In this document: positions 51,213-51,408 of the stretch, piece by piece | Numbering within the stretch: the first letter of the stretch is position 1 | Layout of the letters: every line of letters begins with the position of its first letter | From: Escherichia coli | GTDB taxonomy: Bacteria; Pseudomonadota; Gammaproteobacteria; Enterobacterales; Enterobacteriaceae | Strand: one strand, 5' to 3' | DNA length: 64,000 bases | Assembly (NCBI RefSeq): GCF_001677475.2 | Contig: NZ_CP015229.1 | The notes under the pieces: generated by a model | The model's database searches: none | The model's input: the letters and a program-made list of their open reading frames with translations, nothing else | What the model was told of the DNA's origin: nothing | Made by a program: the position numbers and the translations under genes

Positions 51213-51408
51213 ATATACTCGTCATACTTCAAGTTGCATGTGCTGCGCCTGCGTTCACTCACCCCAGTCACTTACTTATGTAAGCTCCTGGGGATTCACT
51301 CGCTTGTCGCGTTACTCGGCCTGAGGCCTCGCCCTTTCAGGGCCAACGCAAGCGTTGTTCAAAACGCCCCTGCCGTTTTGTCCTGCAACTCGAATTATTT
51401 AGAGTATA
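51213..51408. repeat. ERIC (IRU) enterobacterial repetitive intergenic consensus element
   Basis: Core cactcaccccagtcacttacttatgtaagctcctggggattcac matches ERIC1R/ERIC2 primer sequences; inverted ends tatactc...caagttgca / tgcaactcg...agagtata. Confidence 0.85.

Follow-up and report, generated by a model that had tools for sequence, protein, structure and literature searches.

The bsmA-yjfN locus and its ERIC element

The window (the whole stretch of DNA that was analysed, 64,000 nucleotides from Escherichia coli) harbours an ERIC (IRU/RU-1) miniature inverted-repeat element at positions 51214-51408, placed inside the end of bsmA, a biofilm gene. The initial annotation of an ERIC with a primer-matching core and inverted ends at this position is thereby confirmed. 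The genes and the main parts of the element are the following:

51395..51724, minus strand: bsmA coding sequence, encoding a 109 aa lipoprotein of the YdgH/BhsA family that ends in ...AILYSK (RefSeq annotation of the orthologues)
51214..51408, minus strand (bsmA sense): ERIC (IRU/RU-1) MITE, identified by its core, its arms, alignment to references, and filled and empty sites
51384..51408, minus strand: AT-rich terminal inverted repeat, 5'-terminal when read in the bsmA direction, UAUACUCUAAAUAAUUCGAGUUGCA, which holds the new bsmA codons and stop
51256..51299, no strand assigned: conserved ERIC central core with the ERIC1R and ERIC2 primer sites, identified by primer matches
51214..51238, minus strand: second terminal inverted repeat, 3'-terminal when read in the bsmA direction, identified by arm comparison and fold
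50778..51053, minus strand: yjfN coding sequence, which follows bsmA downstream on the same strand, with its start 160 nt beyond the ERIC

The limits of the element were set by the TATA...TATA convention, and it was aligned to two 127-nt references (Delihas 2007, PMC2759123, Table 1a). It had been delimited previously as 51213-51408 (196 bp), of which the end stands and the start shifts by 1 nt, giving a length of 195 nt. The alignment resolves the element into a 127-bp backbone with a net internal gain of 68 nt, in agreement with its earlier description as a long variant that arose by internal insertion. After removal of the internal module, the backbone is identical to the Salmonella SeRU-1 sequence at 119/127 positions, to the E. 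coli consensus at 112/127, and to the cusC-cusF copy of strain K-12 at 124/127. The element contains the ERIC1R primer sequence without mismatch (51278-51299) and the ERIC2 primer sequence with one mismatch (51256-51277), while shuffled windows gave 0 matches to either primer.

The terminal arms (51214-51238 and 51384-51408) comprise 25 nt apiece and are 80% complementary, and both termini are identical to those of SeRU-1. At the AT-rich end, the outermost 17 nt equal the SeRU-1 terminus and the identity runs to 28 nt (51381-51408). Most of the element is intergenic (181 of the 195 nt), and the remaining 14 nt belong to the bsmA coding sequence.

The ERIC family is multicopy, with a median of 10 matching places per E. 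coli genome and at least 120 loci in the metagenome scan. Similar to other members of the ERIC/IRU/RU-1 family, the copy at bsmA possesses the 127-bp backbone (88-98% identity to published and K-12 copies), the conserved core, terminal inverted repeats, TA ends with a TA duplication, and a long predicted hairpin. Unlike the usual members, it lies partly inside a coding sequence, to which it gives three codons and the stop, and it carries a 70-nt internal module. Compared with the conserved ERIC copies of E. coli, it is a rare and lineage-restricted insertion.

Insertion into the bsmA coding sequence

A 701-bp query across bsmA-yjfN was used to search 5,426 complete E. coli genomes. Both genes were found in 5,425 of them, and 5,423 of these matched genomes possess an empty site that is 193 bp shorter; the ERIC is present only in strains D8 and SW07096. 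In K-12 and Nissle the aligned empty site is ...TTATTTACGGTA^CAAAATGGC, which reads GCC ATT TTG TAC CGT AAA TAA on the gene strand and gives a BsmA protein ending in AILYRK. The filled site reads GCC ATT T[TA]{TAC TCT AAA TAA TTCGAG...GACGAGTA}[TA] TAC CGT AAA TAA, and its alignment with the empty site places a net insertion of 193 bp between the TA repeats. The features found at the two junctions are:

51395..51406, minus strand: ERIC-encoded bsmA end TAC TCT AAA TAA (Y107 S108 K109 stop)
51212..51215, no strand assigned: far-junction TATA, which together with the TATA at 51405-51408 fits a TA duplication from a TATA target
51202..51213, minus strand: displaced former bsmA end TAC CGT AAA TAA (Y R K stop), now untranslated, beyond the far end of the ERIC

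The point of entry is a TA within codons 106/107 of bsmA, four codons ahead of the former stop. The Leu106 codon TTA (51407-51409) spans the junction, and the stop TAA (minus strand, 51395-51397) corresponds to nt 12-14 of the ERIC. In 14 E. coli genomes the empty site has TTA in place of TTG, ...ATTTTATACCGTAAATAA, and this allele provides the TATA target that a TA-duplicating insertion requires. The former end TACCGTAAATAA is retained beside the far end of the ERIC in 14/14 filled loci examined. As judged from these alignments, the ERIC entered the bsmA coding sequence itself and does not merely adjoin the gene, and the former YRK-stop was kept at its far side.

The length of BsmA is maintained at 109 residues, and the sole change is R108S (TAC CGT AAA TAA to TAC TCT AAA TAA). 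That the terminal repeat encodes the final residues and the stop of bsmA had been proposed before; the stop is indeed located inside the repeat, and the empty sites prove that the bases concerned are derived from the ERIC. In a species survey with one genome per species, YRK-type endings without ERIC were found in Escherichia sp. MOD1-EC7003, Citrobacter, Salmonella, Enterobacter, Klebsiella, Kluyvera, and others, and the E. albertii locus also lacks the ERIC. The element is thus missing from nearly all relatives, and nearly all BsmA proteins of relatives without it end in YRK and not in YSK. Tyr-Arg is present at the BsmA end in 73/78 orthologues, and Tyr-Ser only in the three ERIC-bearing genomes. 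The idea that bsmA ends in the remains of an ancient ERIC was ruled out, the YRK-stop being conserved across genera with varied codons.

In E. albertii NBRC 107761 (locus L011), the bsmA orthologue contains an in-frame TAA after 42 codons (codon 43), so that this type strain probably has a bsmA pseudogene.

The target of the insertion resembles the end of the ERIC. The 13 nt that follow the TA in the target, TACCGTAAATAAA, agree with the ERIC end, TACTCTAAATAAT, at 10/13 positions, and a match as good was found at 2 of 5,537 TA sites elsewhere in the window and at 4 of 23,738 TA sites in related loci. A general targeting of ERICs to sequences like their own end was unsupported: among 42 intact non-redundant ERIC insertion sites from the metagenome scan, the maximum was 8/13 and the mean 3.8, against 3.5 for the null. 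This favours survivorship over end-directed targeting as the explanation of the likeness at bsmA, which is one event and as such not separable from coincidence. We infer that the near-perfect re-creation of the conserved Tyr-x-Lys-stop tail is the probable reason why this intragenic insertion persisted.

Distribution and length forms of the insertion

The same insertion, with the same junctions, orientation, and retained remnant, is present in E. whittamii Sa2BVA5, Escherichia sp. E1V33, "E. coli" SCPM-O-B-8794, D8, and SW07096. Its carriers include cryptic Escherichia clades as well as rare lineages of E. coli. Eight further filled loci were obtained through the YSK protein, and identical junctions were also found in loci L085-L092 and in the window. 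The exact YSK form of BsmA is recorded on 99 contigs, and a variant with A27V on 35 more.

The ERIC at bsmA occurs in three length forms. The 127-bp form was found in L087 and L089, the 195-bp form in the window, E. whittamii, L085, and L090-L092, and a form of 271-273 bp (hereafter ~272 bp) in D8, SW07096, L005, L007, L086, and L088. Locus L085 (GCA_033753315.1) is identical to the window sequence, including the flanks, and the ERIC of the window differs from the 195-bp form of E. whittamii by 1 nt.

Local SNP patterns reveal an E1V33-like tract around the ERIC of D8 in an otherwise E. coli background. By the same patterns, the flanks in the window are E. coli-type on both sides and remain so as close as 34 nt to the junctions; their divergence is 1.9% relative to K-12 and 5.4% relative to E. 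whittamii. These sequences would be read most simply as one insertion that then spread through homologous recombination. With a single origin, the E. coli-type flanks up to 34 nt imply that the imported tract was unusually short or was later trimmed.

The alleles of yjfP, at about 52100-52430 of the window (-834 to -500 from the insertion site), alternate between E. coli-like and cryptic-clade-like, which indicates mosaic recombination across the bsmA neighbourhood.

Internal module of the ERIC

The additional sequence of the long forms corresponds to a discrete module:

51311..51380, minus strand: internal 70-nt four-hairpin module, identified by comparison of the 127- and 195-nt forms, a covariance model hit, and covariation

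Comparison of the 127- and 195-bp forms at the same site revealed that the module replaces 2 nt of the backbone (net +68 nt) and follows directly after GCAGGA on the bsmA strand. The ~272-bp form possesses a second, homologous block of 78 nt in the same orientation at another backbone position. The 70-nt module block is also present, at an unchanged position, in metagenomic and viral-contig ERIC copies. Long ERICs that carry ~70 bp of extra sequence at fixed internal sites were reportedly described by Sharp in 1997 and by Wilson and Sharp in 2006. Similar to such variants, the bsmA copy carries its module at the same backbone position as the long copy between iscX and pepB in E. coli and the metagenomic long copies, including L124, L209, and L229. 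The bsmA site differs from the known long ERICs in that 0, 1, and 2 modules are found at one orthologous insertion; elsewhere the copy number reaches up to 4.

All module copies fold into four consecutive hairpins, with the linkers ACAAA-H1-GAAC-H2-GGCCC..GGG-GAG-H4-CGAGUAAC. A covariance model of the module, termed R1, was built, and 30 copies (26 of them distinct) were aligned, the alignment being fitted to the model. In this alignment 98.8% of the cells are paired and 16/24 pairs are changed on both sides, in comparison with 34-44% paired cells in controls with the partner slid by 1-3 columns. A model-free tabulation of the pairing agrees with these values. In the window, R1 has a hit at 51310-51382 with 68 bits. 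The G-U pairs and the difference in predicted energy between the strands point to the strand of the bsmA mRNA as that of the module. A tRNA-like nature of the module was rejected, as ARAGORN found nothing.

Another long ERIC with one module is present between iscX and pepB in about 430 of the 5,426 complete E. coli genomes; in the copy at L093 401-582 (E. coli NRZ14408) the module is antisense to the flanking genes. ERIC-like elements with three or four tandem modules were found in the IMG/VR contigs L100 (5425-5907) and L105 (8026-8288), so the number of modules per ERIC-like element is not limited to two. Phage-derived contigs also contain module copies outside any ERIC, at L107 1286-1365 (minus strand), L097 10555-10634, and L101 204-270. 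The module of L107 is located within the first ~30 codons of an open frame, MKKSSGVILNAAGGGPGGVSPTDGTNNL...MPYQQRWVAD, and a Pfam search of the translation of this module-containing frame gave no hit.

Possible relatives of the module among known RNA families

Both modules of D8 and the module of the window align over the full length of the RF02902 model (AaHKsRNA22, Aggregatibacter sRNA 22). The gathering score of 39.8 bits was not reached, with 33.0 bits for the window, 35.7 and 28.2 bits for D8, and 37.7 bits for the best copy anywhere. The covariance model of RtT (RF00391) gave no hit on the ERIC of the window or of D8 at E values up to 1-10. When R1 was applied to annotated RtT sRNA repeats and unannotated tRNA-operon spacers, weak same-strand hits of 13-20 bits were obtained. 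These hits are situated at L239 639-693, 1134-1186, 1487-1572, 1640-1728, and 1796-1884, and at L209 12863-12929, and the repeats and spacers concerned have the layout AAC-hairpin-GGCCCGAAGGGC-GAG-hairpin-CGAGUAAUC. Other Rfam identities were dismissed, with only sub-threshold hits of V_AS5 on the core and isrH on a terminal repeat.

Both RF02902 and RF00391 share with the module the order of the hairpins and the linkers between them. They differ from it in that the module scores 28-38 bits with RF02902, below the threshold of that family, and in that the RtT model misses the module, the only hits in that pairing being the weak ones of R1 on RtT. The shared layout suggests a common ancestry of the RtT elements and the ERIC module, to be taken as a lead and not as a result; searches of the literature turned up nothing relevant that would connect RtT with ERIC. 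The joint reading would be a strand-specific four-hairpin module of RNA or single-stranded DNA that is gained and lost as a unit and shares ancestry with RtT and sRNA22, with the ERIC as its carrier; we put it forward tentatively and hold it to be rather unlikely as a whole. If true, it would make the ERIC the vehicle of a widespread functional RNA domain. The internal module may be the less well-known part of the element, and the one likeliest to repay further work.

ERIC elements at gene ends

Eighty non-redundant ERIC loci were surveyed for the position of gene ends. At 3/80 loci, long upstream ORFs stop inside the AT-rich ERIC end, at nt 8, 12, or 17, and at about 10/80 loci ORFs enter the opposite, stop-free end for 65-133 nt. 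Twenty-one out of the eighty loci have a gene stop at most 10 nt from one of the ERIC ends or just inside it. No orientation bias of the stop-proximal ERICs was seen among the 80 loci, as eight genes ending between -10 and +25 nt do so at the AT-rich end and thirteen at the other. Stops supplied or abutted by an ERIC are common, and bsmA is a new and unusually clear case of a known phenomenon.

The ERICs of Yersinia are said, in work of De Gregorio et al. from 2005, to overlap or abut stop codons and to modulate the decay of the upstream mRNA. The ERIC at bsmA is similar to these in being located at the 3' end of a gene, with the stop inside the terminal repeat. The bsmA ERIC is likened to them by sequence geometry only (stop at nt 12-14 of the 5' repeat). 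ERIC sequence translated within annotated proteins has been described before, in fusions of up to about 42 residues (Delihas 2007, PMC2759123). The bsmA case resembles these fusions, as here, too, an annotated protein includes ERIC-encoded residues; it differs in that the fusions enter the ERIC via its stop-free end, whereas bsmA enters the stop-rich end, which contributes three residues and mimics the former tail.

Predicted fold and possible effect on transcripts

The 195-nt RNA of the bsmA strand has a predicted folding energy of -84.2 kcal/mol (z = -8.5), compared to -69.1 kcal/mol (z = -5.7) for the opposite strand, and the 272-nt form of the ERIC has a predicted fold of -121.7 kcal/mol. 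In the minimum-free-energy fold of the 195-nt RNA, nt 1-7 pair with nt 189-195, i.e. the terminal repeats are closed together. The bsmA stop lies within the 5' half of this predicted closing stem, so that a terminating ribosome would hold the stem open. On the strand of bsmA, no intrinsic terminator was predicted for the gene.

The ERIC is probably transcribed as the 3' region of bsmA, and the transcript would fold into a long hairpin closed by the terminal repeats. According to the summaries PMC2229807 and PMC10969869, ERICs at the 3' ends of Yersinia genes alter transcript levels, and in the model given there an open ERIC stem exposes an RNase E site and lowers the upstream mRNA. By analogy, ribosomes that terminate in the 5' repeat and keep the stem open would change the decay of the bsmA mRNA, and possibly of the yjfN mRNA. 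A regulatory effect of the ERIC on bsmA or yjfN is one that we infer only.

It had also been proposed that the ERIC could form a long structured 5' leader of yjfN. A block conserved across genera is located between the ERIC and yjfN, and its conservation suggests that the yjfN control region lies downstream of the ERIC. The ERIC would then be part of a yjfN transcript only by read-through from bsmA or from a candidate hybrid promoter (51422-51394). This candidate is a sigma-70-like sequence at consensus level, TTCACA-17-AATAAT, at 51394-51422 on the minus strand across the bsmA/ERIC junction. Its -10 element AATAAT is made by the ERIC end (AATAAA in the empty allele); a single such match is within chance expectation.

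Origin of the insertion and alternative explanations

Taken as a whole, the explanation that best accounts for these observations, and that we consider very probable, combines an ERIC insertion, a resealed bsmA gene, recombinational spread, gain or loss of the module, and a probable effect on the transcript. A non-autonomous ERIC would have inserted at a TA, with TA duplication, in codons 106/107 of bsmA in a bacterium ancestral to some cryptic Escherichia lineages. It would thereby have severed the last three sense codons and the stop, and the ERIC terminus, which reads TAC TCT AAA TAA in frame, would have resealed the gene at equal length with R108S as the outcome. The allele would then have moved between lineages by homologous recombination and so reached the E. 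coli-like background of the window. At the bsmA site, the 127-, 195-, and ~272-bp forms presumably arose by gain or loss of the discrete four-hairpin module.

The history could be reversed, with the ERIC ancestral at bsmA and precisely deleted in E. coli and other relatives via two similar 17-nt direct repeats. Imperfect direct repeats, GATTTATTTACGGTATA and GAATTATTTAGAGTATA, do flank the ERIC with 14/17 identical positions, and a crossover at GTATA would restore the empty sequence. However, the YRK-stop without ERIC, written in varied codons, is common to Citrobacter, Salmonella, Enterobacter, Klebsiella, Kluyvera, and others, so the empty state is older than the genus. A deletion would be demanded in essentially every lineage, and the filled sites keep both copies together with the TA duplication typical of insertion; we regard a reversed history as highly improbable. 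An independent insertion at the same TA in the window lineage and in the cryptic clades, with the ERIC-end-like end of bsmA acting as a hot spot, would explain why the window carries E. coli-type SNP alleles to -34/+34 nt while the flanks of E. whittamii and E1V33 differ, and the 10/13 match of the target to the ERIC end is as rare as about 1 in 3,000-6,000 TA sites. Nevertheless, all filled sites share the junctions, the orientation, and the linked TTA allele, and two independent events would have to yield ERICs only 1 nt apart in the window and E. whittamii. A search of the 5,426 complete E. coli genomes found no near-identical source copy; outside bsmA, the closest copy with a module (iscX-pepB) is only ~80% identical, so that no E. 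coli source is evident. The 42 other ERIC sites are without such end-mimicry (maximum 8/13, mean 3.8, null 3.5), and D8, as a clear recombinant, demonstrates actual transfer of the allele by recombination. Repeated insertion thus appears unlikely, if less so than ancestral presence.

As for the consequences, the insertion might be functionally neutral, a tolerated hitch-hiker that leaves the expression of bsmA and yjfN and the activity of BsmA unaffected. This is in agreement with the unchanged length of BsmA with one different residue, with the rarity of the ERIC at bsmA in E. coli, and with the persistence of three length variants, which suggests weak constraint on the exact form; the position is also an ordinary one, since ERICs abut or overlap stops in about a quarter of the sampled loci (21/80). 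However, the residue that was replaced, R108, is conserved in 73/78 orthologues, a hairpin of a predicted -84 kcal/mol that starts 11 nt before the stop would be unlikely to spare the fate of the mRNA, and Yersinia ERICs at 3' ends alter transcript levels as summarised in PMC2229807 and PMC10969869. Neutrality is a possibility to be taken seriously, which we nonetheless rate as the less probable outcome next to the insertion with a probable transcript effect.

Implications

The bsmA case is well documented, with the empty site intact, an allele that resembles the state before insertion, and the former gene end kept as a remnant. It indicates how a coding sequence can accommodate a miniature transposon, namely by having the lost C-terminus and stop restored from the transposon's own terminus. 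ERICs are usually deemed nearly static in E. coli; the bsmA case points to movement of an ERIC within the genus Escherichia and to its later dissemination through recombination. The states without ERIC and with the 127-, 195-, and ~272-bp forms constitute a natural allelic series for the effects of the ERIC and its module on the stability of the flanking mRNA. Small practical consequences are the R108S variant of BsmA, an extra priming site in ERIC-PCR, and a marker of introgression from cryptic clades.

Other repeats in the window

The window also contains a degenerate, full-length ERIC-like copy at 27108-27232 (core 27170-27191), situated between two tRNA-Gly genes. This copy has 3 mismatches to the ERIC2 primer and is without TATA ends. 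Palindromic repeats of the REP/BIME type are present at 50722-50796, between aidB and yjfN, and are hit by the Rfam model naRNA4 on either strand, with 37.1 and 26.6 bits, which is sub-threshold with respect to the gathering score of 59.5.
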